Below, piece by piece: positions 5,010 through 63,936 of a DNA stretch of 64,000 bases. Positions within the stretch are counted from its first letter, which is position 1; every line of letters begins with the position of its first letter. Position numbers and translations under genes: made by a program. Below the pieces are notes generated by a model that saw nothing but the letters and a program-made list of their open reading frames with translations, did no database searches and was not told where the DNA came from. Origin of the DNA: a virus (lineage: Duplodnaviria > Heunggongvirae > Uroviricota > Caudoviricetes); the IMG/VR virus record IMGVR_UViG_3300029998_000014; one strand, given 5' to 3'.

Positions 5010-5014
5010 ATTTT

Positions 5015-5500: not shown

Positions 5501-5501
5501 C

Positions 5502-5993: not shown

Positions 5994-6003
5994 ATATATT
6001 TTG

Positions 6004-6076: not shown

Positions 6077-6079
6077 ATT

Positions 6080-6298: not shown

Positions 6299-6318
6299 AA
6301 TTAATTTATCAATATTTT

Positions 6319-6391
6319 GTATTCGGACGGGGAATCGAACCCCGCTTGCTGGGATGAAAACCCAGATTACTAGCCGCTATAAGACCCGAAC
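6319..6391 (-). tRNA. tRNA-Glu(TTC)
   Basis: Reverse complement GTTCGGG TC TTA TAGCGGCTAG TAA T CTGGG TTTTCAT CCCAG CAAG CGGGG TTCGATT CCCCG TCCGAAT A. Glu-type D arm; anticodon TTC. Confidence 0.75.
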
Positions 6392-9297: not shown

Positions 9298-10728
9298 TTA
9301 TTTACTTGTTTTTAAATCGGCTTCAAGATAACTCTTAGCAATAGTGCGAATTTCTGTCCAATGTTGATCTCTCATTAATTTACCATTACGATAAACTATT
9401 TCAAGTTCATCAGCATATCCATTATTAATACCATATTGTTCTTTAGAACTTTCGATAGTAATGAATTCTGATCCGGCTTTATGAAGTTTCAAAATACCAG
9501 CTTTTGAAGCTTTAGTCATATCTCCTTTAGGAGATTTACGAATATCTTTTGATTCTCCATCAATTACAGCGAAACAGCATTTTACTGCCCAACGATCTGT
9601 ATCTCTGGTCAATCCTTCAACAAGCAAACCACCACCTGAACCAACCGCAAAGTTTTCACAAGACCAACCAGTTTTAATGTATTCTGAATAAATATCAACG
9701 ATTGAATTTTCATTCATACCATCTCCTTGAATTAAGCCTACATTATGATTAATTACTCTGTAATCTACTTCATTTAAGTGATATCCAAAAATATTACCAA
9801 GCATTTCAGAATACTTAATCATATTTGTTAACGGAACACCAGAATCCGGACGTAAAATAGTTCTACCTGGACGTGCGATAATACGTTGTTTGATTGCTTC
9901 TGAACCAATAACATTTTTAATGAAATTAGTATCATCATAAGAATCAATAACAATTGATACCATAGCATCGTCACCAGCGCGATCAAATTGAGCATTGACA
10001 TAATCAAATTCTCCCTGACCAGGACCAAATACAGTTGCTACTGAGTGTTCAGTTGCCCATACAGATTTTCCTACGGTTGCATCTCCGTAATAGTCTTCAA
10101 TAAATTCCATTGCTGGAACATTATCAGAACCATCAGAAAAGATTAAAGCAGCAGAACCACCTAAACAAGCAGCTTCATGACCTTGAGCACCTCTTAATCC
10201 AAAATCATTAACTACATAATCCAACATAGCGTTGTTAGTAGAGATTTTGAATGATGGAGTAATACCTTTATGAATATTATACATACGAGTAGCAACGGCA
10301 ACTGGATACCAATTCCACATTAACCAAGGTTCGAAGTGACTAACCATTGGTGCAAACCACTCTTCAGTAGCTTCAATTGTATAACAAACATTACCAGTTG
10401 GAACAACAGTTCCTTCTTTTACAGCTTTGATTTCTAAAGGATAATATCCTAAATCGCGAACTTTTTCCCAAATTTCTTGAGGGAAATAACCAGGGTTACC
10501 AAAAGTATTTAAACTTCTACGAGCACCACGTTCAATATCTTCATTAGTGACAACAGTCATAAAATATTCTTTTATGAAATATTGTATACCATAGAAAACA
10601 ATATGAGAGTGTTGACCTCCTACACGAGGTTCTCCATAAGACATAAGTCTTGTCAATCCCGAAGGACGTTGCGTCCAATGCACAAATTTATATGCATCAG
10701 TTGCGGTTGTTGGATGAAATTTTGGCAT
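9298..10728 (-). CDS. nadV: Nicotinamide phosphoribosyltransferase (NAMPT/NadV)
   Basis: 476 aa. Motif DFGLRGAQGHEAACLGGSAALIFSDGSDNVPAM aligns with the NAMPT active-site region [33 protein letters not shown]. Confidence 0.85.
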   Translation of the reverse strand: MPKFHPTTATDAYKFVHWTQRPSGLTRLMSYGEPRVGGQHSHIVFYGIQYFIKEYFMTVVTNEDIERGARRSLNTFGNPGYFPQEIWEKVRDLGYYPLEIKAVKEGTVVPTGNVCYTIEATEEWFAPMVSHFEPWLMWNWYPVAVATRMYNIHKGITPSFKISTNNAMLDYVVNDFGLRGAQGHEAACLGGSAALIFSDGSDNVPAMEFIEDYYGDATVGKSVWATEHSVATVFGPGQGEFDYVNAQFDRAGDDAMVSIVIDSYDDTNFIKNVIGSEAIKQRIIARPGRTILRPDSGVPLTNMIKYSEMLGNIFGYHLNEVDYRVINHNVGLIQGDGMNENSIVDIYSEYIKTGWSCENFAVGSGGGLLVEGLTRDTDRWAVKCCFAVIDGESKDIRKSPKGDMTKASKAGILKLHKAGSEFITIESSKEQYGINNGYADELEIVYRNGKLMRDQHWTEIRTIAKSYLEADLKTSK

Positions 10729-11175
10729 TTATTTAAATTTATTTTTAAATTCTTCAATACTATTGTATAAAGGAATATTATATTTAGAACATACAATTTC
10801 TATATTACCTTTTCTCCAAAATCCTTCAGGACAAATTACATGTAACTTTTTAGAAGTTGCATATAAACCTAATTCTAATAAACTAATTGGAGACATAGTT
10901 TTAGGATCAAAATACATAATAATTATATCAGAAAAATCTAATGCGTGTAATTCCCAAGAAACTTGTTGAAAAAATTCAGGATTATCAAAAGATTGAACCC
11001 AAGAACTATCCCAATTATCTCTACGAGGATTAAATATATTAAAATCTTTTTCAAAATATTTTGTCATAGTATCTTGCCAATTTTCAGCTTGACCCATTTC
11101 AATACTACCTGCTAAAAACATAGAAGGTTTATGTATATCTCGTTGATTTATATTATTTGGAGCTTTAATTACCAT
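10729..11175 (-). CDS. Nucleoside 2-deoxyribosyltransferase-like (NDT/DNPH1 fold) protein
   Basis: N-terminal MFLAGSIEMG... motif typical of the NDT-fold family. Sits between nadV and natV. Confidence 0.55.
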   Translation of the reverse strand: MVIKAPNNINQRDIHKPSMFLAGSIEMGQAENWQDTMTKYFEKDFNIFNPRRDNWDSSWVQSFDNPEFFQQVSWELHALDFSDIIIMYFDPKTMSPISLLELGLYATSKKLHVICPEGFWRKGNIEIVCSKYNIPLYNSIEEFKNKFK

Positions 11176-11303
11176 TGTTTAAATATGATCGTTAATGTTT
11201 TTAATGAATGTACCTAATACAATTATTACAACGATACAAATACCTGTAAAAATTATACCTTCTTGTAAATTCATTGTAGTAATTGCGTTAAAGTACGTTT
11301 CCA

Positions 11304-11642
11304 TTATAGTTTTATTAATTTAATAAATTTTGAAGTGTCTTGTTTAATAACATCGTGTTGAAATCTTTCATAAAATTTAATATCAACTGCTTCAAATTCA
11401 TGAACAAACCATCCAAATTTTTGAAGTTTAATAATATCTGCTTTAGGAAACCATTGATATAAACCCTCTAATGATTCAGTAACTGATAACCAGCCTACTA
11501 ATTTAGGATCAAAATCCATTTCAAGTTTTGAATTTAAACAAAAATTAAAATCATTATGAATTAATCCTGTAAAAATACCTTTATAATCATACCATAAACC
11601 TTGATGGGTATTTATGTTACATACTCTGTAGTATTTTTTCAT
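11304..11642 (-). CDS. Hypothetical protein
   Basis: 112-aa ORF; overlaps natV by ATGA. Confidence 0.45.
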   Translation of the reverse strand: MKKYYRVCNINTHQGLWYDYKGIFTGLIHNDFNFCLNSKLEMDFDPKLVGWLSVTESLEGLYQWFPKADIIKLQKFGWFVHEFEAVDIKFYERFQHDVIKQDTSKFIKLIKL

Positions 11643-12538
11643 TTTTCAGTATTTTTTAATAAGTCAACTAATAACTTTTTATGTTCTCCAACCAAGATTT
11701 TGTCTAGCTCAGGACCGTATGGGAACCATTTTAAGGCAGCAATATCATCTTGAGGTTGTGGACTACCAAAAGTATATTTACATTTGTATAAATGCGTCAT
11801 AATTTTAGCATCATGTGAATTCTTATATCGCCAATCTTCTACACGTTTTGAACAAACGAATTCAAAGTCAGCAAGTTCAAGACCTGTTTCTTCTCTACCT
11901 TCACGACGAGCAGCAGCTTCATCGGATTCATCAGTAACATCAACAAATCCTCCAACAAAACACCATTCTTTTTCATCAGGTTTTTGACCTAATAGAATTT
12001 CACCTTTTTCATTAAAGATTGCAACATCAACTGTTGAAAATGAGCGGGGATATTGTGAAAAAACCGAATAAATTATACCAGCTCTGAAATCAGATGATGC
12101 TAATATACGTCCGGCAACTTTCTTTCTAATATCTGTTGCAGATATATAGACTTCTGGTTCAAGTTCAGTTGTTTTCCAATTTCCAGTATAATATGGAATA
12201 AACGAATCTTTACCTCCATAAAGAGTAACTGTTCCAGATGGAAAAATATCTCTTACTTTAGTACGAATTTGAGTAGACCATACTTCATTGGATTTACAAT
12301 CAGCAAGTGGTACAATTGAAGATATTCTATTTCTAAAATGTGCTTCGATCATAGCTTTACGGGTAATAAAATCCAATGGATTTCTTTGAGTACCCATTGC
12401 AGATGTAGTTCCTAAGAATAAAATTACCTTTTCGTGGTTTGCAAGAACATGTTCAATTAACTTGATATGTTCAGTATGCAATTCGTGTAGCTGAAATCTC
12501 CCGATAACAACTCCAATTTCTGTTTGAGTTTCGTTCAT
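11639..12538 (-). CDS. natV: Bifunctional NMN adenylyltransferase (NadM-type) + Nudix hydrolase (NatV-like)
   Basis: N-terminus GVVIGRFQLHELHTEH resembles the NadM nucleotidyltransferase motif (GRFQPxHxGH). The C-terminal half has the Nudix box REGREETGLE... Confidence 0.8.
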   Translation of the reverse strand: MNETQTEIGVVIGRFQLHELHTEHIKLIEHVLANHEKVILFLGTTSAMGTQRNPLDFITRKAMIEAHFRNRISSIVPLADCKSNEVWSTQIRTKVRDIFPSGTVTLYGGKDSFIPYYTGNWKTTELEPEVYISATDIRKKVAGRILASSDFRAGIIYSVFSQYPRSFSTVDVAIFNEKGEILLGQKPDEKEWCFVGGFVDVTDESDEAAARREGREETGLELADFEFVCSKRVEDWRYKNSHDAKIMTHLYKCKYTFGSPQPQDDIAALKWFPYGPELDKILVGEHKKLLVDLLKNTEK

Positions 12539-12906
12539 TATGGATTTAAAAATTGTTTTAGCAATTCATCATTTAATATTGTGTCTGAATTATTTGCATA
12601 AAATTCCGCAAAATCAAACATTTGTTGTTTAGTAAATTTAGGAATATTAATAAAATATAATTCTTTAAATTGTTCAAAAGTAATTTCTTCTCCTCTAAGT
12701 TGATCAAATATACCTTGTACAATATCTGATCCAGATCTCGCCTCAAGATTATTTACTACAATAGAAATATCATTACTATCTGAATGTTCTTTAATGTTAG
12801 TTGTGTGTGATCCTACCCATGAACAATTATTTTTAAATATTATTTCTTGAACAAATTTAAATTGATCCCTAGTAAGATGATGTATTTTAAAATTTTCGAT
12901 TATCAT
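12538..12906 (-). CDS. Paralog family B, member 1 (unknown function)
   Basis: N-terminus MIIENFKIHHLTRDQFKFVQEIIFKNNCSW; C-terminus FAEFYANN. Confidence 0.55.
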   Translation of the reverse strand: MIIENFKIHHLTRDQFKFVQEIIFKNNCSWVGSHTTNIKEHSDSNDISIVVNNLEARSGSDIVQGIFDQLRGEEITFEQFKELYFINIPKFTKQQMFDFAEFYANNSDTILNDELLKQFLNP

Positions 12907-13274
12907 AATTTTAAGAAGTCAGTTAATACATCATCTGGAGATGATGCGCCAACTATATTGTTAGTGTAATATTCAGCAAATGCAAGGATTTTCTCTCTAG
13001 ATATACGTAAAGTATTAGCATATTTTTCTTTAAATTGATCATATGTTAATTCTTCTCCTTCAAGACCATCAAATGTACTTTGGGTAACTACTACACCGGA
13101 TCTTAACATACCTTTAGATGTCATACATAAAGTAATAGTATTACTAGGACTAAACATTCTTAAATCTTTATCTAAGCTGCTTCCCCATCCACCACCATCG
13201 CGAAATACCATATTTTGAACAATTTTAGATTGTTCATTATCAAGATGATATATTTTAAAAGGTTTTATTTCCAT
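12903..13274 (-). CDS. Paralog family B, member 2
   Basis: MEIKPFKIYHLDNEQSKIVQNMVFRDGGGW ... FAEYYTNN. Confidence 0.55.
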   Translation of the reverse strand: MEIKPFKIYHLDNEQSKIVQNMVFRDGGGWGSSLDKDLRMFSPSNTITLCMTSKGMLRSGVVVTQSTFDGLEGEELTYDQFKEKYANTLRISREKILAFAEYYTNNIVGASSPDDVLTDFLKL

Positions 13275-13647
13275 TTTTTGGTTTTATAAAGTTATCAAAT
13301 AATTGTTCTATTGTTAATTCATCATTTAAATGATCCATACAATATTTAGCAAAATCAATACAAGTTTGTCTACTTGTTTCACCTTTACCAAAATATCTAA
13401 TTTTAAATTCTTCTAATGTTATTTCAGGATTATCATGATTATGAAAATATCCTCCAATAGTTGCATCACCAGTTATAGTATTATTTAAATAATGATATAA
13501 CCCTTTCCACGAACTACCTTGGCTATCAACAAGATTAACTTCTGATTTACCATTTCTCCATTTTGAACCATTTTGAAATAATAGTTTTTGAACAAATATG
13601 GACTCTTCTGGATTATTTACTCTTATTTTAAAATTCTCATTTATCAT
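13255..13647 (-). CDS. Paralog family B, member 3
   Basis: MINENFKIRVNNPEESIFVQKLLFQNGSKW ... FAKYCMDHLNDELTIEQLF. Confidence 0.55.
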   Translation of the reverse strand: MINENFKIRVNNPEESIFVQKLLFQNGSKWRNGKSEVNLVDSQGSSWKGLYHYLNNTITGDATIGGYFHNHDNPEITLEEFKIRYFGKGETSRQTCIDFAKYCMDHLNDELTIEQLFDNFIKPKNGNKTF

Positions 13648-14032
13648 TTTTCAGATTTAATATATATTCATCATATAATTCTTCAAATGTTTTTTCATCA
13701 TTTAAATGGTTCATACAATATTGTACAAACAAAACATATTTATTTTTTTCTGAATGAATAGAGTCAGTTACATATTTACTACAAAAATCTGCAAATGATA
13801 TTTCATTTTTATCATGTCTATTAAACGATGATGTAGAAGTTATATCAGTAAATCCTCCAATTTTTTTAGTTACAGAATTATATTCAAGTCCATTCCAATT
13901 TATATTTGGATTAGGTCCAAATAAAACTGTTTCTTGACCTTCTCTCCATTTAGCTCCATTAGAAAACAAAGTTTCTTGAACTATTTTATGTTCTCTTTCA
14001 TCTGCAATTTTAATTTTAAAACTTTCAATCAT
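13637..14032 (-). CDS. Paralog family B, member 4
   Basis: Start placed at MIESFKIKIADEREHKIVQETLFSNGAKW ... VQYCMNHLNDEKTFEELY. Confidence 0.55.
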   Translation of the reverse strand: MIESFKIKIADEREHKIVQETLFSNGAKWREGQETVLFGPNPNINWNGLEYNSVTKKIGGFTDITSTSSFNRHDKNEISFADFCSKYVTDSIHSEKNKYVLFVQYCMNHLNDEKTFEELYDEYILNLKNDK

Positions 14033-14393
14033 TTTTCCAATCTTTAAATAGTTCTTGTGGCGTTTTTTCATCATTAAGGTGATCCATGTAATATTCAATG
14101 AATTTAAACATGATATCAGTAGTAATTATAACATTTTTAGTTGAAACATTAAAAATATCATATTTTTCAATAAATTCATCATAAGTAATTTCTTTATGCT
14201 CATGATCATCAAAATGTACATTAGTATTTCCAAAACCAGTCATTTGTTTTGAATGATATCTATAACAAATTCCTTCATAATAAAATGAAGATAAAAATTT
14301 CTCTAATAAACCCATACTACTTAATATTCTCTGAACAGTTTTTATTTGATCAGGATTACTAACTTTCATCTTAAAATTTTCTACTATTTCCAT
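14025..14393 (-). CDS. Paralog family B, member 5
   Basis: MEIVENFKMKVSNPDQIKTVQRIL ... IEYYMDHLNDEKTPQELF. Confidence 0.55.
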   Translation of the reverse strand: MEIVENFKMKVSNPDQIKTVQRILSSMGLLEKFLSSFYYEGICYRYHSKQMTGFGNTNVHFDDHEHKEITYDEFIEKYDIFNVSTKNVIITTDIMFKFIEYYMDHLNDEKTPQELFKDWKND

Positions 14394-14408
14394 TTAATTT
14401 CAATTTAA

Positions 14409-14815
<407 letters not shown>

Positions 14816-14836
14816 GAGTATTTTAAAAAGAACAAC

Positions 14837-15109
14837 CTATCGGTTGTTCTCTCTATGTGCTAATTCTAATTCAAAAAAATCTTGAAGACTTTTATCACAT
14901 TTAATATCACCACGTTGCATTGCTGCAATAATGTTACTAACGTGTTTATCGTCTAAATCAGGAACTTTAACTTTTTTACCAGCTTTAGTTATCCAATTCA
15001 TACGATCTCTATCTTCTAGACTATAAGGTCCAACAGTACTAGCTGTTGCTACACCTTCGAGTAATATAATTTCTTTACTCATGTTCTTTGGATATGGTAA
15101 TAGTTTCAA
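14837..15109 (-). CDS. Hypothetical protein
   Basis: 90-aa ORF. Confidence 0.45.
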   Translation of the reverse strand: MKLLPYPKNMSKEIILLEGVATASTVGPYSLEDRDRMNWITKAGKKVKVPDLDDKHVSNIIAAMQRGDIKCDKSLQDFFELELAHRENNR

Positions 15110-23985: not shown

Positions 23986-24065
23986 TTCTTTTTATCATTT
24001 TGTGTTTAACCTACACGAATTGTGTAACGCACTAAGCTTAATAACTTTATACTCCCTTAGTGGAG

Positions 24066-24107
24066 TTAAAACGAGGATGCTATAGAATCGTGATCCCATA
24101 GCATCCC
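24066..24107 (-). terminator. Candidate rho-independent terminator
   Basis: Minus-sense GGATGCTAT-(14 nt loop)-ATAGCATCC followed by TCGTTTTAAC. Confidence 0.45.
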
Positions 24108-28937: not shown

Positions 28938-29023
28938 TATGGATAAAAGGATTTGAACCTCCGACCTCCGGCTAATGTTTTTGTCTTGCTGCCGACGCTC
29001 TAACCAGGCTGAGCTATATCCAA
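28938..29023 (-). tRNA. tRNA-like gene with a normal D arm, T arm and acceptor but an 18-nt anticodon loop (decoding unresolved)
   Basis: Reverse complement TTGGATA TA GCTC AGCCTGGTTA GAGC G TCGGC [AGCAAGACAAAAACATTA] GCCGG AGGTC GGAGG TTCAAAT CCTTT TATCCAT A. Confidence 0.4.
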
Positions 29024-36598: not shown

Positions 36599-37009
36599 TT
36601 ATTTATATCGAGGTAAATCTTGTTTAATTTTACTATATTCATTTCCTCCAATCATTAATCCATTTTTGTAAGCATGAATTTTATTTTCAGAATCAGTACA
36701 CCATTCAAGATTTACTAATGAATTATTTAATTTATTTCCATCTATATGATTTACTTGTAAATTTTCAAAGATTGGTCTAAATGTTAACATTACTATTCTA
36801 TGAACATGTAATGTTTTTATTCCATTTCTATTTTCAGCAGTAAATCTTAAATATCCAAATTTATTAGGAGATAATTTTAATATTTTCCCTTTTAATTTTC
36901 TTCCAATTTTAGATATTCTATTTAAACTTCTTATTCTTCCTAAATTAGAAACTTGATATATTTCTTCATATTCAGGAATGTCTTTTCAGATTTCTTCTAT
37001 TTCTTGCAT
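36599..37009 (-). CDS. HNH_3/NUMOD4 homing endonuclease with in-frame TGA at codon 8
   Basis: Minus-sense ATG CAA GAA ATA GAA GAA ATC TGA AAA GAC ATT CCT GAA TAT ... gives MQEIEEI-W-KDIPEYEEIYQVSNLGRIRSL...HVHRIVMLTFRP...NHIDGNKLNNSLVNLEWCTDSEN. Stops with TAA. Confidence 0.65.
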
Positions 37010-43197: not shown

Positions 43198-43280
43198 AAT
43201 CTTATTTGTTTTTGAGTTTGATATGTTTAAACATATTTCGTCCAGTCTCATCAGAAACTATTTTATACTCTACTGGTTGA
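43198..43280 (-). promoter_or_regulatory. Conserved upstream element, copy B
   Basis: GTTTTTGAGTTTG...TTTCGTCCAGTCTCATCAGAAACTATTTTATACTCT. Confidence 0.45.
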
Positions 43281-44738
43281 GTTAATAAAAAAGAGAGTAC
43301 ACACTATATGTCCAAATGCGACGATGTGTACTCCCTTAGTGTTTGTTATCAAAATTAATATGATAACCATTGTTTACTTCGCGGTACATCACCGATAAAA
43401 TCGGTGAATCTAACCGGGAAGCATTCTTTCGTAATAAAGAGCTTCACCCTTTTGCTCCCATAGCCAGTTTCAGGACGATATTACGTTGGCTTGTTTTTGA
43501 CACCAGCAATTAGCACGGCATCGGTTTTAGTATACCTATCTTTTATTAATTTGTCTTCAAGGATTGACAGAATGGATGCTATTTGTACATATAGCCGTTA
43601 TACCTTACACTCGGAAGTTCCACACTTTCATCGGAGGATTGCGCACAGGTTTTCATTATACTTATTTGCAGTTAGTATTATACTGTTTAAAGGCATCAAA
43701 CCACCATACTGAATCTCTTCTTGATTAGTTATTCAGATATGCTTCTTATATAAGAGATTATATTATTTATAACGTTATTATATAGAGAATATACATATCC
43801 AACCGTTTATCTGATGAAAGTTGCTTGATGCTAAGAGTTTAAAGTATATTTACAATAATTGCAGCTAATAAAAATCCAGCTGCGGCAGCATATAAATGCG
43901 ACATAATATGATTTTCTTTATCAAAACATATTAATCCCATAAATATATCAAATGCTAAACATAGACTGAGTATAATTACCATTAGCTTATGTATTTAAAC
44001 ATTAATATTCCACAATCAATAAGTAAAGAAAGCATTACATATCCCATTCGTGATTCTTCTTGCCATTTGATAATATTGAATTGTAGTCCAATAAATGAAC
44101 CTAACAAGTAAAAGATAATCCATGGTGCAATGTATAATAGAGTTTTTTCAGTTTTAGTCATGTTTTTTGATTTTACATTCTATTGATATAAACATTGCAC
44201 ACAATTCTACAAATAAATAGAAGATTAAGAACGGTGATAAACAAATTACTATTGCTTGAGTTTTAGTTAACATTATAGATCTTCATTTTTAAATTTGGTG
44301 ATGAAATTATCTAACCATTTAAATCGGATATTAAAGCGAACTCTTTTTATGAGTTTATCGCATAACATACAGATAAAAACAATTAATAATAATCCAATCA
44401 TAAATATCACTATTAATGTATTTATTCCAGGAATAAACCACATAAAATCACATTCAGCTTCATATTTACTAAATATATCTAAATACTTCGGAGATGCAAT
44501 TCTATATAAGACACTACACAGAACAATGGATAATAAATATCCAACAATTAATAAGAATAGTACCATGATTATTGTAATGGAATGTGAAACTTAATACACA
44601 ACATAAGTACAATCCCACACATTATAAATCCACACGCAAAACCTCCAAGTAATACACCTGTAAGATCTTTTTCAATATAATATTTTCTTGTTAGAAATAT
44701 ATCGAAACATAATAAAAGTAATAATAATATTATCATGA

Positions 44739-45687: not shown

Positions 45688-45780
45688 AAGTTTTTGAGTT
45701 TGACGGGAGTGATGAGCTCCCCGTTTCGTCCTAGTCTCTTCAGAAACTGATGTTATACTCTCCTAGGCTGAGTCATATTG
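45688..45780 (-). promoter_or_regulatory. Conserved upstream element, copy C
   Basis: TTTTTGAGTTTG...TTTCGTCCTAGTCTCTTCAGAAACTGATGTTATACTCTCC. Confidence 0.45.
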
Positions 45781-49872: not shown

Positions 49873-50244
49873 ATGGAAGTAATACAACACTTCGTTCGTA
49901 ATGACGACCATGATGAATTATACATTATGGAAATTGAAGGGAAAGCTTATGCTAGGATGTATTGATTCCATGATGATCCAAAATCAGTTTACTTAAACTC
50001 TTTAAGTGTTGAGAATAACGAAAGAGAACAAGGACTTGGAACTAAAATGCAGGAACTAAGAGAGAAAATAGGAATAGAACTCGGAGCTACACAATCCTTT
50101 TTATGAGTTAAACGGGATAGTTGAATGTATGAATGATATACCCGAAGAGGTTATAACGATTTCTCAGATTACACAGATGATGATAGTATGATATGAATGA
50201 TTAAAATGTTAAATGATAACAATACTAAATACAAAGAAGACTAA
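49873..50244 (+). CDS. GNAT-family N-acetyltransferase containing 5 in-frame TGA codons (read as Trp) and no TGG
   Basis: ATG 49873, TAA 50242. The translation with TGA=W reads MEVIQHF...YIMEIEGKAYARMYWFHDDPKSVYLNSLSVENNEREQGLGTKMQELREKIGIELGATQSFLWVKRDSWMYEWYTRRGY...SMIWMIKML. The Q/RxxGxG/A GNAT motif (QGLGTKM) is present. This gene is absent from the standard-code ORF track. Confidence 0.7.
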
Positions 50245-52429: not shown

Positions 52430-52858
52430 ATGGAAGAAATACTAAAGAAATTTAATTACAAACCCACAGAAGAAAATACTTGGGTTAAAGGTGAATGGAC
52501 TGTTAGATTTGATGATGAACTCGTCGAAGTTTTTAACGATCCTAATAAAAGTGCAGGCGAATATTATAGTTCACCAATTGCAACAGTAGATTTAGAATTA
52601 ATATTAATGGAAGTTGATAGGAAAAATCGCTGACCAATCGTTACTATGGTTACTGATATGATTACCGATGTAAATGCAGAATCAGAAAATGCAACTGGAA
52701 ATACTTATATAATGTTTACTCCTCATAGAGTATGGTTAAAAGATTGGTTAAGGTTATGGGGTCAAGAAGAAAATGGAAGTTATTCTATTACAGGTAACAA
52801 TATCTTTGTTGTTGATTCAACACTAAGTAAAGTAATAGATATTACAAAACTAATATAA
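52430..52858 (+). CDS. Hypothetical protein, continuous through TGA at 52631-52633
   Basis: Track ORFs 52430..52633 and 52646..52858 are in the same frame, separated by TGA plus 4 sense codons (...EVDRKNR-W-PIVTMVTDMI...). Confidence 0.45.
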
Positions 52859-52887
52859 AAGTTAGAGGTTCTTTAAAACCTCATCAT

Positions 52888-52960
52888 ACCTTTGTAGTGT
52901 AATGGTTAGCACACAAATCTTCAAAATTTGTAAGTGTGAGTTCGAGTCTTACCAAGGGTG
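52888..52960 (+). tRNA. Opal-suppressor tRNA, anticodon UCA, tRNA-Trp-derived (tRNA-Trp(UCA))
   Basis: ACCTTTG TA GTGT AATGGTTA GCAC A CAAAT CTTCAAA ATTTG TAAGT GTGAG TTCGAGT CTTAC CAAGGGT G. The anticodon loop is C-U-UCA-A-A. A1-U72, G73, the D loop and the T loop UUCGAGU match the E. coli tRNA-Trp architecture. Confidence 0.9.
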
Positions 52961-52978
52961 CAAAATGATAGAATAAAT

Positions 52979-53545
52979 ATGAATAGAACAAGTAAAGAAG
53001 AATTAGAAAAACTAATATTAATAGATAAGTTATCATATGCTGAAATAGCAAGAACATTTGGTGTATCTGATGTTACTATTAGAACCTGGGCAATTAAACT
53101 AGGGATAAATATTCCTAGCCGAAAAAAAATATTGGAAAATAAGATATGTTTAAATTGTAATAATGAATTTAAACCATCTGGAACTACAAATAAATATTGT
53201 AGTCAACAATGTTCAAATGAACATAAAATAATTTTAAATTATGAAAAATATAAATTAGATAATTCCATACTTTATGGACAATCTAATATGTCAAATTATA
53301 AAAAACATTTTTTAAAAGAACAAGATTATAAATGTACAATTTGTGGAAATCCGAATACTTGGAATGATAAAGAATTGGTATTTGTTTTAGATCACATTGA
53401 TGGTAATGCTGATAATAATGAACGTAGCAATTTAAGGTGTATATGTCCTAATTGCGATAGTCAACTTGATACATTTAAATCTAAAAATAAAAATAGTGCT
53501 AGAGCAAAATACAGACAAACTTTAAAGGTGGAGGAATGTGTATAA
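52979..53545 (+). CDS. HNH homing endonuclease with N-terminal HTH
   Basis: LDHIDGNADNNERSNLRCICPNCDSQ (HNH) and LSYAEIARTFGVSDVTIRTWAIKLGI (HTH). The track ORF starts at GTG 52958 inside the tRNA; the ATG at 52979 is preferred. Confidence 0.75.
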   Translation: MNRTSKEELEKLILIDKLSYAEIARTFGVSDVTIRTWAIKLGINIPSRKKILENKICLNCNNEFKPSGTTNKYCSQQCSNEHKIILNYEKYKLDNSILYGQSNMSNYKKHFLKEQDYKCTICGNPNTWNDKELVFVLDHIDGNADNNERSNLRCICPNCDSQLDTFKSKNKNSARAKYRQTLKVEECV

Positions 53546-53892: not shown

Positions 53893-56157
53893 ATGAACGC
53901 AGGAAAGAAATTTTTGAGTGACTTAAAACTTCACTCTGACTACTTAAAGTGGAGACCAGAAGAAGGTCGATACGAAACATGGAATGAAGCATGTGAGTCT
54001 ATAATCAATGGTCATAAAGATCATTATGCAGATGTAGACCTAAGTAAAGAATTAGAATACGCATTGAAATATATGCAATCTAAAACGGTACTAGCTTCAC
54101 AACGAAATCTACAGTATAGAAATGAGCAGATCGAACGTAACAATGCAAGACTTTATAATTGTTCATCTATGTATGCTGCTAGAAATAAAATATTCCAAGA
54201 AGTATTTTACTTAGCATTAAGTGGTTGTGGTGTAGGATTAGGATTACTTATTCCTTTTGTGAATAACATTTCACAAGTAAATAAAAGAACTAAAGGGACT
54301 AAAACATTTATTGTTCCCGATTCAATTGAAGGATGGTCTGATGCATTTGGTGTATTGATGTCATCATTCTTCATTGATAAACAACCTTTTCCAGAGTATG
54401 CAGGATACGAAATTAAATTTGACTATTCAGAAGTAAGAGAAAAAGGTGCATTCATTAGTGGAGGATTCAAAGCTCCAGGACCTGATGGTTTAAAACAATC
54501 ATTTGAAAAGATCGAAGAGTTCTTAAATAAATGGATTACATCAGAAGGCACTAAACTAAGACCAATCGCTGTATGTGATATTCTATGTCACATCTCAGAC
54601 GCAGTATTATCAGGTGGAGTTAGACGTTCTGCTCTTAACATGATTGTTGATCCAAATGATGATGAAATGATTAATGCTAAAGTTGGTAACTGGAGAACTA
54701 ATAACCCACAACGTGGAAGAACAAATAATTCGGTGTTACTTCTTAGAAGTTTAACCGGAAAAGAAGAATTTGAAAAGCTTGTTAAAATGAATGATGGATA
54801 TTCTGACATTGGTTTTGCATTTGCTAACTCATGGTTTGATATGTTCAATCCTTGTTTCGAAATTCTTAAACACCCAATTCTTCATTCAAAAATTAGTACA
54901 AAAATAAATGATGTATCTTATGATAAGATAGAAGAATTTATTAGAGATAATGAAGACAAACTAGGTGTAGCATTCTGTAATCTTTGTGAGATTAATGCAG
55001 AACAATGTGATATAGTTGAGAATTTTTATTCTGCGTGTATTGCTGGTGCAATCATTGGAACACTACAAGCAGGTTATACATCATTTCCTTATCTTGGAGA
55101 AACCACTGAAAAGATTGTAAGACAAGAAGCTCTATTAGGAGTATCTGTTACAGGATGGATGAATAACCCAATGTTGTTTAACACCGACATTTTAAAACAT
55201 GGTGCATCTTTAGTTAAAGAAACAAACAAGACAATAGCTGAAAAGATTGGAATTAATCAAGCTGCTAGAACGACATGTGTTAAACCATCGGGTAATGCAT
55301 CTGTAGTATTGGGAACTGCGTCAGGTATTCATCCTGAACATTCTCAAAAGTATTTTAGAATCATGCAACTAAACAAAGAAAACGATACAGCCAAATGGTT
55401 GAACAAACATATGTCTTATCTTTTAGAAGAAAGTGTTTGGTCAAGTACTGGATCTGATTATGTTGTATTTGTTCCTATTGAGAATCCTATTGAGGGATTA
55501 TATAAGAAAGACGTAAAAGGTGTTAAACATCTTGAACTAATAAAACTAGTACAATTAAATTGGGTAAATGAGGGAACTAATCGCGATCTATGTGCATATC
55601 CTGATGTGAATCATAATACATCTAATACTGTTATTGTTGATGATCAAAAAGCTGTTATAGATTATATTTGGAATAACAAACATGACTTTACAGCAGTATC
55701 CTTTATATCTGATTACGGAGATAAAGATTTTACACAAGCTCCATTCACATCTGTATCTTCATTAGATCAACTAATGAGTGACTATGGAAAAGGTGCATTA
55801 TTCGCATCTGGATTAATTGTTGATGGACTACATTATTTTAACGACAATCTTTGGATTGCTTGTGATATGATTAAAGATAAATCAGTTCCTATTACTGGAA
55901 CAAGAGAACAAGTAATGCTTAAGAAATATTGGTTGGCTAGAGCAAAGAAATTTGCTAACAACTTCTTTGGAGGAGATTTACAAAAGACTGTATATTGTTT
56001 AAAAGATGTACATCTATTTCATAAATGGGAAGTAATTAATAGACAATTTAAACCAGTTGACTTTGGAGAGATTCTAAACAAGCCAACATATAAAGACATT
56101 AGTGACACAGCGGCCCAAGCTTGTAGCGGAGGTTCATGTGAGATCACTAGATTATAA
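53893..56157 (+). CDS. nrdJ: Ribonucleotide reductase, class II (adenosylcobalamin-dependent, NrdJ-like)
   Basis: 754 aa. Thiyl-radical motif FCNLCEINAEQC (compare SNLCTEI in class I/II RNRs). C-terminal redox Cys pair ACSGGSCEI. 14 Trp, all TGG, and no in-frame TGA. Confidence 0.7.
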   Translation: MNAGKKFLSDLKLHSDYLKWRPEEGRYETWNEACESIINGHKDHYADVDLSKELEYALKYMQSKTVLASQRNLQYRNEQIERNNARLYNCSSMYAARNKIFQEVFYLALSGCGVGLGLLIPFVNNISQVNKRTKGTKTFIVPDSIEGWSDAFGVLMSSFFIDKQPFPEYAGYEIKFDYSEVREKGAFISGGFKAPGPDGLKQSFEKIEEFLNKWITSEGTKLRPIAVCDILCHISDAVLSGGVRRSALNMIVDPNDDEMINAKVGNWRTNNPQRGRTNNSVLLLRSLTGKEEFEKLVKMNDGYSDIGFAFANSWFDMFNPCFEILKHPILHSKISTKINDVSYDKIEEFIRDNEDKLGVAFCNLCEINAEQCDIVENFYSACIAGAIIGTLQAGYTSFPYLGETTEKIVRQEALLGVSVTGWMNNPMLFNTDILKHGASLVKETNKTIAEKIGINQAARTTCVKPSGNASVVLGTASGIHPEHSQKYFRIMQLNKENDTAKWLNKHMSYLLEESVWSSTGSDYVVFVPIENPIEGLYKKDVKGVKHLELIKLVQLNWVNEGTNRDLCAYPDVNHNTSNTVIVDDQKAVIDYIWNNKHDFTAVSFISDYGDKDFTQAPFTSVSSLDQLMSDYGKGALFASGLIVDGLHYFNDNLWIACDMIKDKSVPITGTREQVMLKKYWLARAKKFANNFFGGDLQKTVYCLKDVHLFHKWEVINRQFKPVDFGEILNKPTYKDISDTAAQACSGGSCEITRL

Positions 56158-56173: not shown

Positions 56174-56884
56174 ATGGGAAAAGGCACACGAGAAAAGCGT
56201 ACTGAGAAACGCGAGAAAAACAGATTACCCGAAAAACAATCTAACTTAGTAAATGATTTCAAACCAAAGAATGAGAAACAACAAGAGTTTATTAACCTTA
56301 TAAATGATAGAGAGATTATCATTGCTACAGGTCCTGCTGGAACAGGTAAGACATATGTAACATTAGCAACAGCTTTATCATTATTAGGTTCAATCTATAA
56401 AAAGGTTATTCTTGTAAAGTCAGTAACTACTATTCCCGGAGAAGAAATAGGATTCCTTAAAGGTGGAATGGAACAGAAAATGGAACCATTTATAATGTCT
56501 TATATGTGAAATATTGATAAGATCTGCGGAGATAAATCTGCACAGAACTTACTTGATAAAAAAATAATTGAAGTATTACCACTAGCTTTTATTAGAGGTT
56601 TATCAATTGATAATGCTATTGTAATAATCGATGAAGCACAAAACATAGATAATCATACTTTTAAAACAATGATGACTAGAATTGGAGAAAACTCAAAATA
56701 CATTCTTCTTGGAGATAGTGAACAAATAGATAGACGTAAGAAAAGCGAATCGTGTTTAGCGAAAGTTATTGAGATATTTACTGATTCAGATATTATTGGA
56801 TCAATAGAATTTAAAGATGAGGATTGTGTGAGAAATCCAATCATTCCTATAATTTTATCTAAACTAAGAGAGAACGGAATCTAA
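56174..56884 (+). CDS. phoH: PhoH-like ATPase with one in-frame TGA (56507-56509)
   Basis: ATGPAGTGKTYVTLATA (Walker A) ... LAFIRGLSIDNAIVIIDEAQN (PhoH signature). The frame is continuous only if TGA is sense (...FIMSYM-W-NIDKICGDKS...). Start at MGKGTREKR. Confidence 0.85.
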
Positions 56885-57102: not shown

Positions 57103-57561
57103 ATGACAGAATTACTAGTAGGCGGTGCAGTAACAATTGCAGTATCAGCATTTACTTTCCTTTTAGGAAAGGGTAAAAATCAAGCTGAAACAGAAAAGCT
57201 TGAAAAAGAAACAGAGAAAATAGAAATCGAGACTAAGTTCGATGAGGTTAAATTACTTAAAGAAATTAATCAAAACTTATCAGATCAATACGAAAAAAAT
57301 GATAAGAGATGGACTGAACGTTACGCCGAAATGGAAAAAAAGTGAATGACTATTGTAAGCCAATATGAAGTTTATAAAACTCAAACTGAAAAACGTATTT
57401 GTGAACTTGAAGAAATTGTAAAGAATCAAGATAGAGATAAATGTTTAGGTGATTTATGTCCTACTAAAATAGAATATAATAAGATCCTAGCAAAAAGATT
57501 AGAGAGAAAAAGAAACTCCGCTATGAAAAAATTTAATCAAAGCGGTACAAAACAGGAATAA
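57103..57561 (+). CDS. N-terminal TM + coiled-coil protein, continuous through TGA at 57343-57345
   Basis: Track ORFs 57103..57345 and 57346..57561 are in the same frame (...EMEKK-W-MTIVSQYEV...). TM helix LLVGGAVTIAVSAFTFLLG. Confidence 0.45.
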
Positions 57562-57565: not shown

Positions 57566-58492
57566 ATGGATAATGCGAATGTAAAATTTAATGAATTGAA
57601 AGTAGATAAGGAAGATAGCTGCGTAATGTATAATGACGAGCTCCACAAATATTGGACAAAGAAAACCAATCAAGCGTGTATATCAGCAACTACACTAATC
57701 CATAAATTTGGAACATTCGATCCAATCTTCTGGAGTGCTTATAAAACATTAGAATCACTCATAACAGAAGATGAATTTAAAACAATTAAACCAACTCTTT
57801 TAGATAGAAAAAATTTTAAAGATGAACACTACGAATCCTTTGGTATAACTAAGGAAACGTTTGAAGAAAGAAAAGCCGAAATTCTAAAAGAATGGGATAG
57901 AAAACGAGATGAGTCTTGTATAAGAGGTACAGCAATCCATAAGCAAATGGAAGATGGACACTTAGATGGAAAGACTGCTGAGTTACAATATTTAAATTTG
58001 GGAGGTTCGTTTAAAACAGACATTACTAACAATCTAAAACCTGGAGAACAAGGTGTTTATCCAGAATTACTTTTAAGTAGAGTATCCGATGATGGGGAAC
58101 TTAGAATTGCAGGTCAAGCAGATTTAATAATAGTAGACGGATATGATGTCTACATTTTAGATTATAAGACTGGAAAGAAGATGGATACTAAATCTTATTT
58201 CGACCGTAAATTAAAGAGATCATCTAAAATGAAATATCCTTTAAACAACCTTGATGATTGTAACTTCATGCATTATTCTATGCAATTAAGTTTATATGCT
58301 TGGATGATTCAAAAAGCTAATCCTCTTTTTAATATAAAGATGCTCTTACTTATTCACATTGATCACGACGGTAATGTAAAAAACTATGAGTGCGATTATT
58401 TAAAAGCAGATGTGGAAAGAATGCTTGGATATTATAAAACCCAAATTAAAAATGAAGAATTTAAAAAATCCAGAGAAAAAATTGTATTTTAA
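57566..58492 (+). CDS. PD-(D/E)XK nuclease (RecB/YqaJ/lambda-exonuclease-like)
   Basis: Motif AGQADLIIVDGYDVYILDYKTGKK (D...(D/E)xK). Confidence 0.6.
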   Translation: MDNANVKFNELKVDKEDSCVMYNDELHKYWTKKTNQACISATTLIHKFGTFDPIFWSAYKTLESLITEDEFKTIKPTLLDRKNFKDEHYESFGITKETFEERKAEILKEWDRKRDESCIRGTAIHKQMEDGHLDGKTAELQYLNLGGSFKTDITNNLKPGEQGVYPELLLSRVSDDGELRIAGQADLIIVDGYDVYILDYKTGKKMDTKSYFDRKLKRSSKMKYPLNNLDDCNFMHYSMQLSLYAWMIQKANPLFNIKMLLLIHIDHDGNVKNYECDYLKADVERMLGYYKTQIKNEEFKKSREKIVF

Positions 58493-58823
58493 AATAGCCG
58501 TCGGAATTTTTGTATTCCTATTGGTGTGTATAGCATTCTCAATACAGAACGACAAATACAAAGTCTTAGATAATAATTATAAGATTGAACAATTAAAGGT
58601 TGACAGTTGTAATAAGAAAATAAAAGCATATGAATTATTGAACAGAAAAGCAGATAGCACTATATGAGTACTAGAGAAAAAGAATGATTCTCTTGGAGAT
58701 ATAAAACCAATAATATTAATGTACTATGATAAGAAAATTAAAAGTATTAACAGTGCTTCTGCTTATGAGCACGCTCGTTGGATGGACTCAATCGTCACCA
58801 AAGTGAACAGTATGAAAAAGTAA
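58410..58823 (+). CDS. Small TM protein, continuous through TGA at 58665-58667
   Basis: ...KADSTI-W-VLEKKNDSLGDIKPIILMYYDKK...ARWMDSIVTKVNSMKK, then TAA. TM helix FKIAVGIFVFLLVCIAF. Uses both TGG and TGA. Confidence 0.4.
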
Positions 58824-58863
58824 TCCTGATACTATTATTACTTACAATTACACAAAAACTGAT

Positions 58864-59178
58864 TTGACTAACGTTAGATTATATGTTACTGGATTGGAAG
58901 AAACTCGAGAGTTATATAACATCGAAATACAACAATCTAAAATAAAGGATTCTATAATTATTGAAAAAAATAAAAAATTAGATAACTTTAAAAATATAGT
59001 AATAGAAAAAGATTCTATTATAGGTTATACTGTTACAGAGTTTAATAAAGCAGACAAATGGGGAAAATCTCAAGAAGTCTTAAAAACTAAATATAAAAAA
59101 CAAGCTGCAAGAACTCCATTATTTATGGGTATTAGTAGTGCAATAGGATTTATATTATGTCTATTATCAATAAAGTAG
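58864..59178 (+). CDS. Hypothetical protein with C-terminal TM anchor
   Basis: 104 aa; C-terminus TPLFMGISSAIGFILCLLSIK. Confidence 0.45.
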   Translation: MTNVRLYVTGLEETRELYNIEIQQSKIKDSIIIEKNKKLDNFKNIVIEKDSIIGYTVTEFNKADKWGKSQEVLKTKYKKQAARTPLFMGISSAIGFILCLLSIK

Positions 59179-61279: not shown

Positions 61280-61555
61280 ATGATTACAATTTGTAATAAT
61301 GCAAAAAGAAACACTATGATTAATGAACAACGAAACAACGATAAGCAGTTTTTCCTACCTGGAGATGTAGTAAGTCTTAGACAAGATGTACCAAATAAAC
61401 CCACTATGATTGTGGTAAAAAAAGTTACTAAAACTATTAGAACTTCTGATGTAAAGAATGATTTCTTCCAAGGAATTCAATGTATGTGATTCACAACAAC
61501 TGGGGAGATTGTAAAAGATACTTTTAATACTAAAGATCTTTTGAAAATACAATAA
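61280..61555 (+). CDS. Hypothetical protein, continuous through TGA at 61487-61489
   Basis: ...GIQCM-W-FTTTGEIVKDTFNTKDLLKIQ, then TAA. Confidence 0.35.
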
Positions 61556-62167: not shown

Positions 62168-63355
62168 ATGACCGACGAAAAGAAACAAGAATTATTTCCG
62201 TATTTCGCTTACACTTATTCTAAACAAATAAATCCAGAGAAATACGGAAATTTATCTTCTGATGAATGACAAACTGTAATACAGGATAGTCCAGAAGATA
62301 TAGATCAGATTAGCCAGGCTGCTGGACAACTTGCAGATGAAGATTGAGATGCACTCGATCAACAATACTCTCAAGAACAACCTCAAGAAAATCAAGCGCA
62401 ATATGCTGCAAAAGGAGCCAAAATTAAAAAACTAAAATCTATGAAATGTGGATGTGGTTGTAATATGGTTACTGTTAAAGAAGAAGGTGGTAAAATGTCA
62501 TCTAAATGTGCTTGTAAATGTGGAGGTAAAATTAAACATCAAAAAGGTGGAAATGTTATACCATTAAAAAATGATGCAACAACTATAGCAAAAAATAAAG
62601 AAAGAATTAAATCACGTCCTGCTATTGCAACTAAAGATAGTACAGATGAATTATCTGAAAATTTAGCACATTTATCAATGGATAGTTATACAAGTTCTGG
62701 AGATTTAAAAAATCAATATGATAAAAAATTTGATGCAACTGCTTCTGCTTTAACTCGTCAAAAAAATAAAGGAAAATCTGGCTTTGATGCTAATGGATTT
62801 CCTAAAAAACAAAATGGTGGAATAATAAACAATAAAAAATCAAACAACATGAAAGAAAATTTAGGATCTATTCAAAGTATATTAGATTCATTTAAAAAAG
62901 GTGGTAAAATGAAATGCCAAAATGGTGGAGATCTAAGTCCTAAATCAGCAATAGTTGCTAAGAATGGTTCTAAAGCTCCTAAAAGAATTACAACAGAAAA
63001 TAAATCTGTTGAAATAGAAACCGCTAAATGTGGAAAAAAATTAGCTAAGAAACAAGTTGGTGGTAAAGTTAAAGCATCTATTAATACTGCTGCTTCTGCA
63101 ACTAGTAAATTACCAAAAATGAATTCTCAAAGTGGAGCTAATTCAAGTACTGTGCCAACAAATCCTGATGGATCTGCAAAAGCTCCAGCAAGAATTAAAA
63201 AAGGACAAACTGGAATTACAGCACCAGCACCCAAAAAAAATAAATTGCCAATTGTAAATGGTAAAAAAGTTCCTGATGATGGAGCTGACTACTCTGTACA
63301 AGGTCCAGCAAATAAATCTGAAAAGGTAAAAAAATCTTTTTCTCCTAAAAAATAA
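62168..63355 (+). CDS. Lys-rich low-complexity protein with repeated K-x-(Q/K)-GG modules and 2 in-frame TGAs
   Basis: ATG 62168 is in frame with track ORF 62441..63355. TGAs at 62267-62269 and 62342-62344 (...SSDE-W-QTVIQ..., ...ADED-W-DALDQQ...). Repeats KHQKGG, KKQNGG, FKKGGK, CQNGG, KKQVGG. Confidence 0.55.
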
Positions 63356-63360: not shown

Positions 63361-63936
63361 ATGAAATTTTTTGTATATGATAATGTAAATGGAAATGTAT
63401 CTCTCGAAGACACAAGTATACTTTTAATAAAGGAATTTGAAGCTTTGTTAGAAGATAATAGAAATAAAAGTAGTGCCGACAAAACGGGTAAAAAACGGTT
63501 GAGAGCATTTAAAGAATTTAAATTTATATATCTGTTCTTTGATTGAGAAAGTCCTTATTTTCAATATACAGAACAAGATAAACATGCAGAGGCTATGAAA
63601 GATTCAGGATTGTCAGACGAAGAGTTTGACGATCCTAAATTTAGAATGGCGTGTCAAAAATATGATGAAATCCAAAATTCATCATTAGACATAAAATTAT
63701 TAAAGGCGGCAATGAATGCTGTTGATAATCAAATATTTTATTTAAGTAATGTAGATTTACAAGAAAGAGATCCTATTACGGGAAAACCAATCTTTAAAAG
63801 TAAAGACTTAATTGCTGAGATTAAAGGCTGTAAAGATTTAATATCTACTTTACGTGAATTACAAGTTCAAGTTAAGAAAGGATTAGAAATTGAAAGTAAC
63901 GTAAGAGGTAATACTGAAATTGGATTATTCGATTAA
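63361..63936 (+). CDS. Hypothetical protein, continuous through TGA at 63544-63546
   Basis: Track ORFs 63361..63546 and 63595..63936 share a frame (...FIYLFFD-W-ESPYFQYTEQDKHAEAMKDSGL...). Confidence 0.45.

Follow-up and report, generated by a model that had tools for sequence, protein, structure and literature searches.

The 64,000-nucleotide (nt) stretch of phage DNA analysed in this study (IMG/VR record IMGVR_UViG_3300029998_000014; hereafter the window) contains a tRNA gene with the anticodon UCA on its plus strand at positions 52888-52960. This 73-nt class I tRNA, designated tRNA(UCA) and best described as Trp-type, very probably serves the phage as a functional decoder by which UGA is translated as tryptophan (Trp), and probably reads UGG as well, by wobble. 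It was supported by ARAGORN, by Rfam model RF00005, by its fold, by covariation among relatives and by the nucleotides at diagnostic positions. Unless stated otherwise, coordinates are those of the window; the total phage sequence examined was approximately 81 kb, and the whole genome measures at least 175 kb.

ARAGORN returned a tRNA with the anticodon TCA at 52888-52961(+). The "SeC" label printed by this program derives from the anticodon alone. The general tRNA model RF00005 (gathering score 29) covered 52888-52960 over model positions 1-71 of 71, with a score of 62.9 bits (E = 2.7e-11). The model for selenocysteine (Sec) tRNA, RF01852, gave no match at tRNA(UCA) or elsewhere in the window. 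The acceptor stem, ACCUUUG/CAAGGGU, has the first pair A1-U72 (A52888-U52959) and a single G-U pair. It is followed by U8 A9, a D arm with a 4-bp stem (GUGU-AAUGGUUA-GCAC), an anticodon arm (CAAAU-CUUCAAA-AUUUG, anticodon at 52921-52923), a 5-nt variable loop (UAAGU) and a T arm (GUGAG-UUCGAGU-CUUAC), giving an acceptor/T geometry of 7/5. The discriminator is G73 at 52960; CCA is not encoded, and the trailer reads CAAAAUG. The cloverleaf is the minimum-energy fold, with a z-score of -1.07 that is uninformative because an unremarkable folding energy is usual for tRNAs. The plus-strand cloverleaf, the anticodon loop CU-UCA-AA and the A1-U72 and G73 identity elements of the initial annotation were thereby all borne out by the programs and by direct reading of the sequence, and 52888-52960 is a genuine class I tRNA with the anticodon UCA.

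The meaning of TGA was examined in the genes that contain it. Long open reading frames (ORFs) for the terminase (702 amino acids, 10 in-frame TGAs) and the portal protein (731 amino acids, 2 in-frame TGAs), which lie just beyond the right edge of the window, were restored under genetic code 4 and fragmented under codes 11 and 15. When the 10 terminase TGAs were masked as X and 42 homologues (57-94% identity) were aligned, the corresponding columns held Trp in 337 of 420 cells, Phe in 43, Tyr in 37 and other residues in 3 (2 Pro and 1 Ser), against a background Trp frequency of 1.9%; Gly, Cys, Arg and Gln did not occur at all (0/420 each). The ribonucleotide reductase (RNR) of the close relative L004 contains 3 TGAs, each placed on a Trp invariant in 75-77 of 77 homologues; in the portal and PhoH proteins of relatives, TGA likewise aligns with Trp. 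A given Trp site can hold TGA in one relative and TGG in another, as is usual for synonymous codons, which means that TGA stands for Trp. Judged from these alignments, TGA is a Trp codon in this phage, which rules out Gly, Sec, Cys, Arg and Gln.

Within the window, TGA decoding is required by the PhoH gene, two HNH endonuclease genes and at least 5 further genes. The PhoH-like ATPase gene (56174-56884, +) has one in-frame TGA (56507-56509), which falls between the Walker A and B motifs, and the Pfam PhoH domain continues unbroken across it (E = 2.4e-57). Gene calls were broken at the same codon in independent assemblies, and relatives have TGA or TGG at the site. On the minus strand, in the early block, an HNH homing endonuclease gene (357-1100) carries TGA (786-788) at the Trp of its CxxC...W...HH motif, and a NUMOD4-HNH homing endonuclease gene (36599-37009) carries TGA (36986-36988) where the NUMOD4 motif begins. 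The read-through product of the latter matched Pfam NUMOD4 (2.2e-17) and HNH_3 (6.9e-11); the NUMOD4 match begins at the TGA residue, where the family has a conserved Trp. In the plus-strand block, 8 internal TGAs in 7 genes were validated by alignment with relatives. Besides PhoH, plus-strand genes with internal TGA include an ORF at 58410-58823 (TGA 58665-58667; the alignment with relatives extends across this codon, whose position is not conserved), a gene for a predicted membrane or secreted protein at 58726-59178 (TGA 58804-58806, Trp in relatives, and 58813-58815, a variable site), a small ORF at 61280-61555 (TGA 61487-61489), a gene for a Lys/Gly-rich protein at 62168-63355 (TGA 62267-62269 and 62345-62347) and an ORF at 63361-63936 (TGA 63544-63546); at the TGA sites of the last three, relatives have TGA or TGG. 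The ORF at 63361-63936 is the last gene ahead of the homing endonuclease/terminase/portal module, and three more genes just beyond the window, for a GIY-YIG endonuclease, a 204-amino-acid protein and a 243-amino-acid protein, contain 5, 4 and 5 in-frame TGAs, respectively. The role proposed in the initial annotation, that of a decoder for TGA-containing genes, thus gains support, as TGA occupies columns of conserved Trp in the proteins terminase, RNR, PhoH, NUMOD4 and HNH.

Two other plus-strand frames with good codon scores, 49873-50244 (5 TGAs) and 57103-57561 (1 TGA), had no homologues in the relatives. Both exist as ORFs only if TGA is read, and the former would be a TGA-containing gene upstream of tRNA(UCA). 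Two candidates were rejected: 2506-3186 as a TGA-containing gene, its extension running over a tRNA-Val, and a strain variant (L087) supposed to have TGG in the 357-1100 HNH gene, in which TGA is present and the intact call came from a code-4 gene caller.

Bacterial tryptophanyl-tRNA synthetase (TrpRS) recognises its tRNA by G73, by the bases of the anticodon and by the first base pair; U31-A39 is a predicted determinant (PMC9976931). tRNA(UCA) carries G73, A1-U72, C35, A36 and U31-A39. When diagnostic positions were compared with those of phage tRNAs, the CU at positions 32-33 was shared by 61 of 65 tRNA-Trp(CCA) and 23 of 48 tRNA-Gln(UUG), the G at position 73 by 63/65 and 20/48, and the A-U pair 1-72 by 29/65 and 6/48; AA at positions 37-38 was found in 62/65 of the former and was not among the three commonest states of the latter (n = 48). 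The D loop had been called Trp-like in the initial annotation. This proved not to be diagnostic: when the anticodon was left free, phage tRNA-Gln(UUG) accounted for most occurrences of the identical D arm, with further ones in His, Met, Arg and Glu tRNAs. The D arm was consequently rejected as a Trp identity mark, and Trp identity cannot be deduced from the D and T loops. BLAST of tRNA(UCA) alone gave mixed tRNA-Arg and tRNA-Trp matches. As for its proposed origin from tRNA-Trp by a CCA to UCA change, a close parent with a CCA anticodon was not found, the phage's own tRNA-Trp(CCA) being a different, 81-nt molecule. Taking determinants and codon evidence together, Trp appears by far the best assignment, and charging with Trp is predicted.

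It is exceedingly improbable that tRNA(UCA) is a tRNA-Sec, a Gly-inserting tRNA as in code 25, or a tRNA derived from tRNA-Arg or tRNA-Gln, and that UGA has a meaning other than Trp. The printed "tRNA-SeC", the similarity to phage tRNA-Arg and the D arm common to tRNA-Gln would fit such a view, as would the UCA tRNA of the relative L005, which just reaches the Rfam tRNA-Sec threshold. Bacterial tRNA-Sec has an 8/5 acceptor/T geometry, a 6-bp D stem and a long variable arm. The window tRNA, by contrast, combines 7/5 geometry with a D stem of 4 bp and a variable loop of 5 nt, and of the two models only the general one matched it. A reading of TGA as Gly, as under code 25 in Gracilibacteria/Absconditabacteria and the phages of these bacteria, does not fit, since Gly occupied none of the 420 terminase cells and tRNA(UCA) has G73 and A1-U72; the tRNA-Gly-type body for that code has U73 and G1-C72. 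ArgRS uses A20, and position 20 in the D loop of tRNA(UCA) is U. The combination G73, C35 and A36 is a TrpRS signature in which A36 separates Trp from Arg recognition (PMC9976931), and the terminase TGA columns, with 337 Trp, 80 Phe/Tyr, 2 Pro and 1 Ser, lack Gly, Cys, Arg and Gln.

Conservation was assessed in five distinct class I versions of the gene, namely those of the window, L091 type, L118, L173 and L182. All 105 cells (21 stem pairs in 5 versions) were paired, and both sides had changed in 12 of the 21 pairs; none of 500 shuffled controls reached the observed covariation, and slid controls paired 38-50% of cells. The CUUCAAA loop, U31-A39 and G73 were invariant in all five, whereas the invariance of the D arm was partly forced by the search pattern that had found three of the versions. 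Compensatory changes around an invariant loop are strong comparative evidence that the tRNA is functional and that its UCA anticodon is under selection. Among the syntenic relatives (L004, L005, L070, L089, L091-93, L118, L173, L182 and L204), all those with informative genes were TGA-recoded, and a tRNA(UCA) lies beside RNR/PhoH, after the same small ORF, in every one whose upstream region is covered. Of the loci collected through RNR, 76 of 80 share only RNR and not the gene order, so a missing tRNA at these is uninformative; the statement that only the closest relatives have tRNA(UCA) was dropped and restated for syntenic relatives. The exact anticodon-arm pattern gave one chance match in IMG/VR, which was not a tRNA, and megablast of the 48-60 kb region against deposited phages gave no match. 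A second, different tRNA(UCA), with the loop AUUCAGC and C73, was seen on the opposite strand in L091 (1667-1742).

These data bear on the possibility, which we regard as very unlikely, that tRNA(UCA) is decayed or a bystander and that UGA is read by the near-cognate tRNA-Trp(CCA), by another suppressor or by context-dependent read-through. A tRNA-Trp(CCA) is indeed present in the array, the sequence examined covers about 81 kb of the genome, and suppressor tRNAs were found in only approximately 35% of code-4 phages (10.1101/2021.08.26.457843), so that other mechanisms may exist. However, the orthologues keep a perfect cloverleaf by compensatory change and an invariant UCA loop, the gene holds its place in every recoded relative that could be inspected there, and a gene with 10 TGAs would presumably need efficient cognate decoding.

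The two strands of the window differ in their use of TGA, as counted with a code-aware gene model that is crude. The minus-strand block (1-48.3 kb; 78 genes, 13,119 codons) has 193 TGG and 2 internal TGAs (1%), both within homing endonuclease genes. The plus-strand block in the window (24 genes, 4,709 codons) has 32 TGG and up to 14 internal TGAs (up to 30%), and the five genes just beyond the window (2,158 codons) have 6 TGG and 25 internal TGAs (81%). Seven minus-block genes have TGA within the last 12 codons, for which the joint chance under uniform placement is approximately 9e-9, so these TGAs are genuine stops. Recoding differs even between close relatives: RNR has 3 TGAs in L004 and none here, and the TGA:TGG ratio of the terminase ranges among relatives from 7:4 to 13:1. 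The gene for tRNA(UCA) lies upstream of every validated plus-strand TGA gene, 46 kb from the main tRNA array and on the opposite strand, in the block that runs into the late genes. The genome can thus be read as an unusually legible case of two dialects, with the decoder gene standing where they meet, away from the general tRNA array. Annotation of the genome calls for a mixed code: if code 11 is applied, the genes for the terminase, the portal protein, PhoH and several endonucleases come out fragmented, as they do in public gene calls.

By its terminase, the phage is a large crAss-related virus: this protein was 27-30% identical to those of Crassvirales and 40-44% identical to those of uncultured human-gut phages, and the named hosts among its matches were all Bacteroidota. 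Another large protein was closest to those of a huge uncultured phage and of Cellulophaga phages. The window has 30% G+C and is identical to contigs of 88.7 kb and 175 kb from independent metagenome assemblies; one block matching the window holds a contig of more than 0.2 Mb. If the host itself read UGA as Trp (code 4, as in Mollicutes and some endosymbionts), the tRNA would only supplement supply. That TGA clearly encodes Trp in many genes is what this view would expect, and the near-complete tRNA set of the phage is compatible with general supplementation of codon supply. It is nevertheless quite improbable, since an AT-rich genome adapted to code 4 would use TGA throughout, and the minus block has 193 TGG, 2 TGAs confined to mobile endonucleases and 7 genes ending at TGA. 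The Bacteroidota hosts named for the terminase relatives also speak against it. The tRNA(UCA) pattern was found in bacterial genomes on 2 contigs only, among genomes of 185,579 species, and this near absence argues against a host-derived tRNA as well as against a host code.

For the favoured reading, a phage decoder of UGA as Trp, the following mechanism is proposed. tRNA(UCA) would be transcribed together with the plus-strand block and matured in the same way as the other tRNAs of the phage, with an N73-CAAA trailer and CCA added after transcription, and host TrpRS would charge it by way of G73, A1-U72, C35 and A36. Its accumulation would make late genes, and homing endonuclease genes lying in early regions, translatable, so that recoding would time or gate the late functions; to the products of early genes with TGA stops, it would add only 0-11 residues. 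From sequence we infer the charging by TrpRS, the timing of expression and the regulatory role alike. A timing or gating role is plausible, and by analogy to the phages described by Borges et al. (10.1101/2021.08.26.457843) their gating model seems the likeliest function. The system suits testing of recoding as a timer for the expression of late genes and homing endonucleases.

For the regulatory part, a serious rival is that the tRNA works and recoding has no regulatory role, having arisen by neutral or mutational TGG to TGA drift that the presence of a suppressor had made possible, or as a defence against competing elements or host translation. We consider this possible, though doubtful. At 30% G+C, a change from TGG to TGA follows mutation pressure, and recoding forms a gradient and not a switch, its extent differing between close relatives in RNR and terminase. 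What drift alone leaves unexplained is that the 13,119 minus-block codons are without internal TGA save in two homing endonuclease genes, and that tRNA(UCA) stands apart from the array, on the strand of the late genes.

Several observations weigh against the decoder and its gating role. Position 34 of tRNA(UCA) is U and not the TrpRS determinant C34; this is the change that allows UGA to be read, and it weakens one determinant, so that charging may be inefficient. Two of the five orthologues carry C1-G72 in place of A1-U72, which makes the latter dispensable in the clade. Overall similarity, out of 70, was 55/54 for UCA, 53 for CCA and 52 for UUG tRNAs, and does not separate a Trp from a Gln ancestry. 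PhoH, which is usually not late, has a TGA, and RNR, downstream of the tRNA, has none, which makes the early/late split gradual rather than sharp. A sigma-70 scan stayed at background and gave no assignable promoter for tRNA(UCA), which is unsurprising if the host is a member of the Bacteroidota. Neither release factor 1 (RF1) or another release factor, nor TrpRS, nor a CCA-adding enzyme was found among the ORFs of the approximately 81 kb by motif search (GGQ, KMSKS and TrpRS motifs), and the absence from this portion of a phage TrpRS or release factor counts against the proposal. Finally, the host is predicted to belong to the Bacteroidota, and its use of the standard code is an inference.

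UCA tRNAs of a different construction occupy the same site in the two closest relatives of the window phage. That of L004 (3564-3655, +) is 92 nt long with a long variable arm, and that of L005 (8540-8633, +), 93 nt long and at the Rfam tRNA-Sec threshold, has an 8/4 acceptor/T geometry. A tRNA(UCA) of 93-97 nt, often adjoining an ordinary tRNA-Trp(CCA), was found on 18 further phage contigs (IMG/VR loci L096, L098, L108, L109, L114, L119, L123, L125, L129, L134, L139, L153, L164, L169, L178, L180, L185 and L205). In L005 and these 18, the variable arm forms a covarying hairpin in 19 of 19 sequences; its stem is 94.7% paired, with double changes in 4 of 5 pairs and 25 covarying cells against 8.7 expected. 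The 7-nt loop of this hairpin, (C/G)UCCA(A/U)A, equals the anticodon loop of tRNA-Trp in the 19 sequences, and the L004 loop, CUUCCAACC, holds the same core. No description of UCA tRNAs with a copy of the Trp loop was found in Borges et al., Mukai et al. or the searchable full-text literature.

The copies suggest that retaining TrpRS identity after the change of C34 to U is a real constraint in these phages. A tentative interpretation, which we hold to be less likely than not, is that the tRNA site is a hot spot at which structurally unrelated UGA-reading tRNAs interchange, and that the variable "CCA anticodon arm" is a handle restoring recognition by TrpRS or a modification enzyme. TrpRS recognition may have been lost through C34 to U and regained through the variable arm, and the interchanging tRNAs may keep a minimal TrpRS signature of G73, C35, A36 and usually A1-U72. 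The plain window tRNA may then be the ancestral state or a streamlined derivative without the handle. In laboratory opal suppressors, a UCA anticodon and G73 are reportedly enough for TrpRS on different tRNA bodies; by analogy, such sufficiency would explain why the UCA tRNAs of the clade share little else. The tRNAs with Trp-loop copies lie outside the window and are not needed to explain its plain tRNA. If confirmed, they bear on the synthetase identity of suppressor tRNAs and could inform engineered opal suppressors.

The phenomenon as such was already described in other phages in 2021-2022, and the present phage is a clear further example, which extends TGA to Trp recoding to a large crAss-related lineage recurring in many metagenomes. 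Borges et al. (10.1101/2021.08.26.457843) reported code-4 phages, including Agate, Jade and related clades, with TGA suppressor tRNAs, terminase TGAs aligned to Trp columns, recoding that falls mainly in late genes and differs between close relatives, and an early-region homing endonuclease gene that prefers TGA, so that its product is made only late in infection. The window phage resembles these in its terminase TGAs at Trp, late-biased recoding, replication and metabolic genes in the standard code, phage tRNA(UCA), a host presumed on indirect grounds to use the standard code, early-region homing endonuclease genes with TGA, and relatives that differ in recoding. It differs from them in the crAss-like lineage of its terminase (27-30% to Crassvirales), contigs of at least 175 kb, approximately 25 tRNAs plus a transfer-messenger RNA (tmRNA), a conserved site (small ORF, tRNA, RNR/PhoH) that holds structurally different UCA tRNAs in relatives, and in that motif search of the 81 kb examined gave no "code-change operon" of RF1 and TrpRS. 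Such accessory genes are seen in some code-4 phages only and are thus not defining. With the crAss-like and Lak phages that read TAG as Gln by a tRNA(CUA) (Peters et al., PMC9523058; Borges et al.), it shares the strategy and the broad phage group, with a suppressor tRNA, recoded late genes, a crAss-like terminase and, by prediction, Bacteroidota hosts; it differs in the codon (TGA, not TAG), the amino acid (Trp, not Gln) and the synthetase, and code 15 restores no ORFs here.

Laboratory opal suppressors charged with Trp in Escherichia coli are mutants of cellular tRNAs, whereas the phage tRNA(UCA) is natural and kept by selection; they include a tRNA-Trp(UCA) and a tRNA-Gln(UCA) that is reported to have switched to Trp identity (Rogers et al., PNAS 1992). 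In Mollicutes, UGA and UGG are both read as Trp by a class I tRNA-Trp(UCA) that has G73 and A1-U72, in a code that applies genome-wide. The phage tRNA agrees with the Mollicute one in class, anticodon, G73 and A1-U72; unlike the situation in Mollicutes, the virus imposes the code on part of its own genome in a presumably standard-code cell, and early TGA is still a stop. Sec and allo-tRNAs (Mukai et al., PMC5389517) have in common with tRNA(UCA) the UCA anticodon and G73, and the L005 counterpart has 8/4 geometry, a long variable arm and a borderline Rfam tRNA-Sec score; the window tRNA differs from them in its 7/5 geometry and short variable loop, and its TGAs stand at Trp and not at Sec, Cys or Ser positions.

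The surroundings of tRNA(UCA) agree with the initial annotation, which had placed it upstream of an HNH-like ORF and the RNR gene. Directly upstream lies a small conserved ORF of 67 amino acids (52430-52633, +), which ends at a genuine TGA stop and had no PHROG match. By code-4 tblastn, its residues 1-63 matched ORFs adjoining the tRNA in L004, L005, L091, L118, L173 and L204, and the alignments end before its TGA; reading 52430-52858 as one TGA-containing gene was rejected in favour of two genes, the first with a TGA stop. A perfect 7-bp hairpin (GAGGUUC-UUUA-GAACCUC, 52865-52882) ends 6 nt before the 5' end of tRNA(UCA) and may either terminate the upstream gene or signal processing. The HNH-type homing endonuclease gene between the tRNA and RNR (52979-53545, +) matched Pfam HNH_3 with E = 3.7e-4, below the curated cut-off, and has a clear CxxC...HIDGN...CPNC motif; it uses TGG for Trp where its paralogue at 357-1100 has TGA. 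L004 is without this gene, and its tRNA(UCA) is 145 nt upstream of RNR. The RNR gene of the window (53893-56157, +; PHROG 367) has 0 TGA and 14 TGG.

The main array of the phage comprises 24 tRNAs on the minus strand, 11 in the window (24-6391, by ARAGORN) and 13 just to its left; tRNA(UCA) is not a member. With at most 46 of 73 positions identical to any other tRNA of the phage, it is not a recent paralogue of the array tRNAs. None of the window set (129-6391, - and 52888-52960, +) encodes CCA. The N73-CAAA trailer occurs in 8 of 11 window tRNAs, including tRNA(UCA), and also in the relatives' versions, which suggests a shared 3' processing of phage tRNAs. The phage tRNA-Trp(CCA), located 67-147 nt left of window position 1 (L084 11811-11891), has an extended variable arm with a GAAA tetraloop, A1-U72, G73 and a CAAA trailer. 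Next to it, 18-96 nt left of position 1 and on the window's minus strand (L084 11726-11804), there is a tRNA shape in which a UUCG tetraloop hairpin replaces the anticodon loop; ARAGORN labelled it "tRNA-???" and Rfam gave 28.2 bits. On its other side, ARAGORN called a 90-nt "tRNA-Tyr" with the unusual anticodon AUA (24-113, -), for which the Rfam tRNA model made no call; an ordinary tRNA-Tyr(GUA) is present further left. An 86-nt tRNA-like element at 28938-29023(-), with 47.5 bits in Rfam, no ARAGORN call and an anticodon region enlarged to approximately 18 nt, possibly represents a small insert or a pseudo-tRNA.

The window also encodes NAMPT, an NMN-adenylyltransferase/Nudix protein, glutathionylspermidine synthase, GroEL/GroES, AAA ATPases and several homing endonucleases, besides RNR and PhoH. 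A nicotinamide adenine dinucleotide salvage cluster at 9298-12538(-) contains NAMPT, a nucleoside deoxyribosyltransferase-like gene and NMNAT-Nudix. Just left of the window (L084 12831-13775) there are genes for methionyl-tRNA formyltransferase and a YqeY-like protein, which means that the phage has translation-related genes beyond tRNAs. The phage-encoded tmRNA (14407-14815, -; Rfam 107 bits) has the tag peptide GNKTISFARTAFMAAA; its occurrence alongside stop-codon reassignment is suggestive, as it could rescue ribosomes stalled at unread UGA. Two families of tandem paralogous small genes were observed on the minus strand, one of five copies at 12565-15000 (FK(I/M)...VQ...(F/L)...G..W), three members of which end at TGA stops, and one of four or five copies at 1207-4610 (YK(V/I)GD...W(F/Y)). 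Two hammerhead (RAGATH-1) ribozymes (43215-43283 and 45697-45774, -) and one pistol ribozyme (24005-24066, -) scored above the Rfam gathering scores; their surroundings are a gene-poor stretch of approximately 42.3-47.7 kb and the vicinity of a 719-amino-acid ORF. Two independent assemblies (L002 and L003) break at the same right end, equivalent to approximately 74.9 kb in window numbering, which points to a repeat or to a physical end of the genome at that place.

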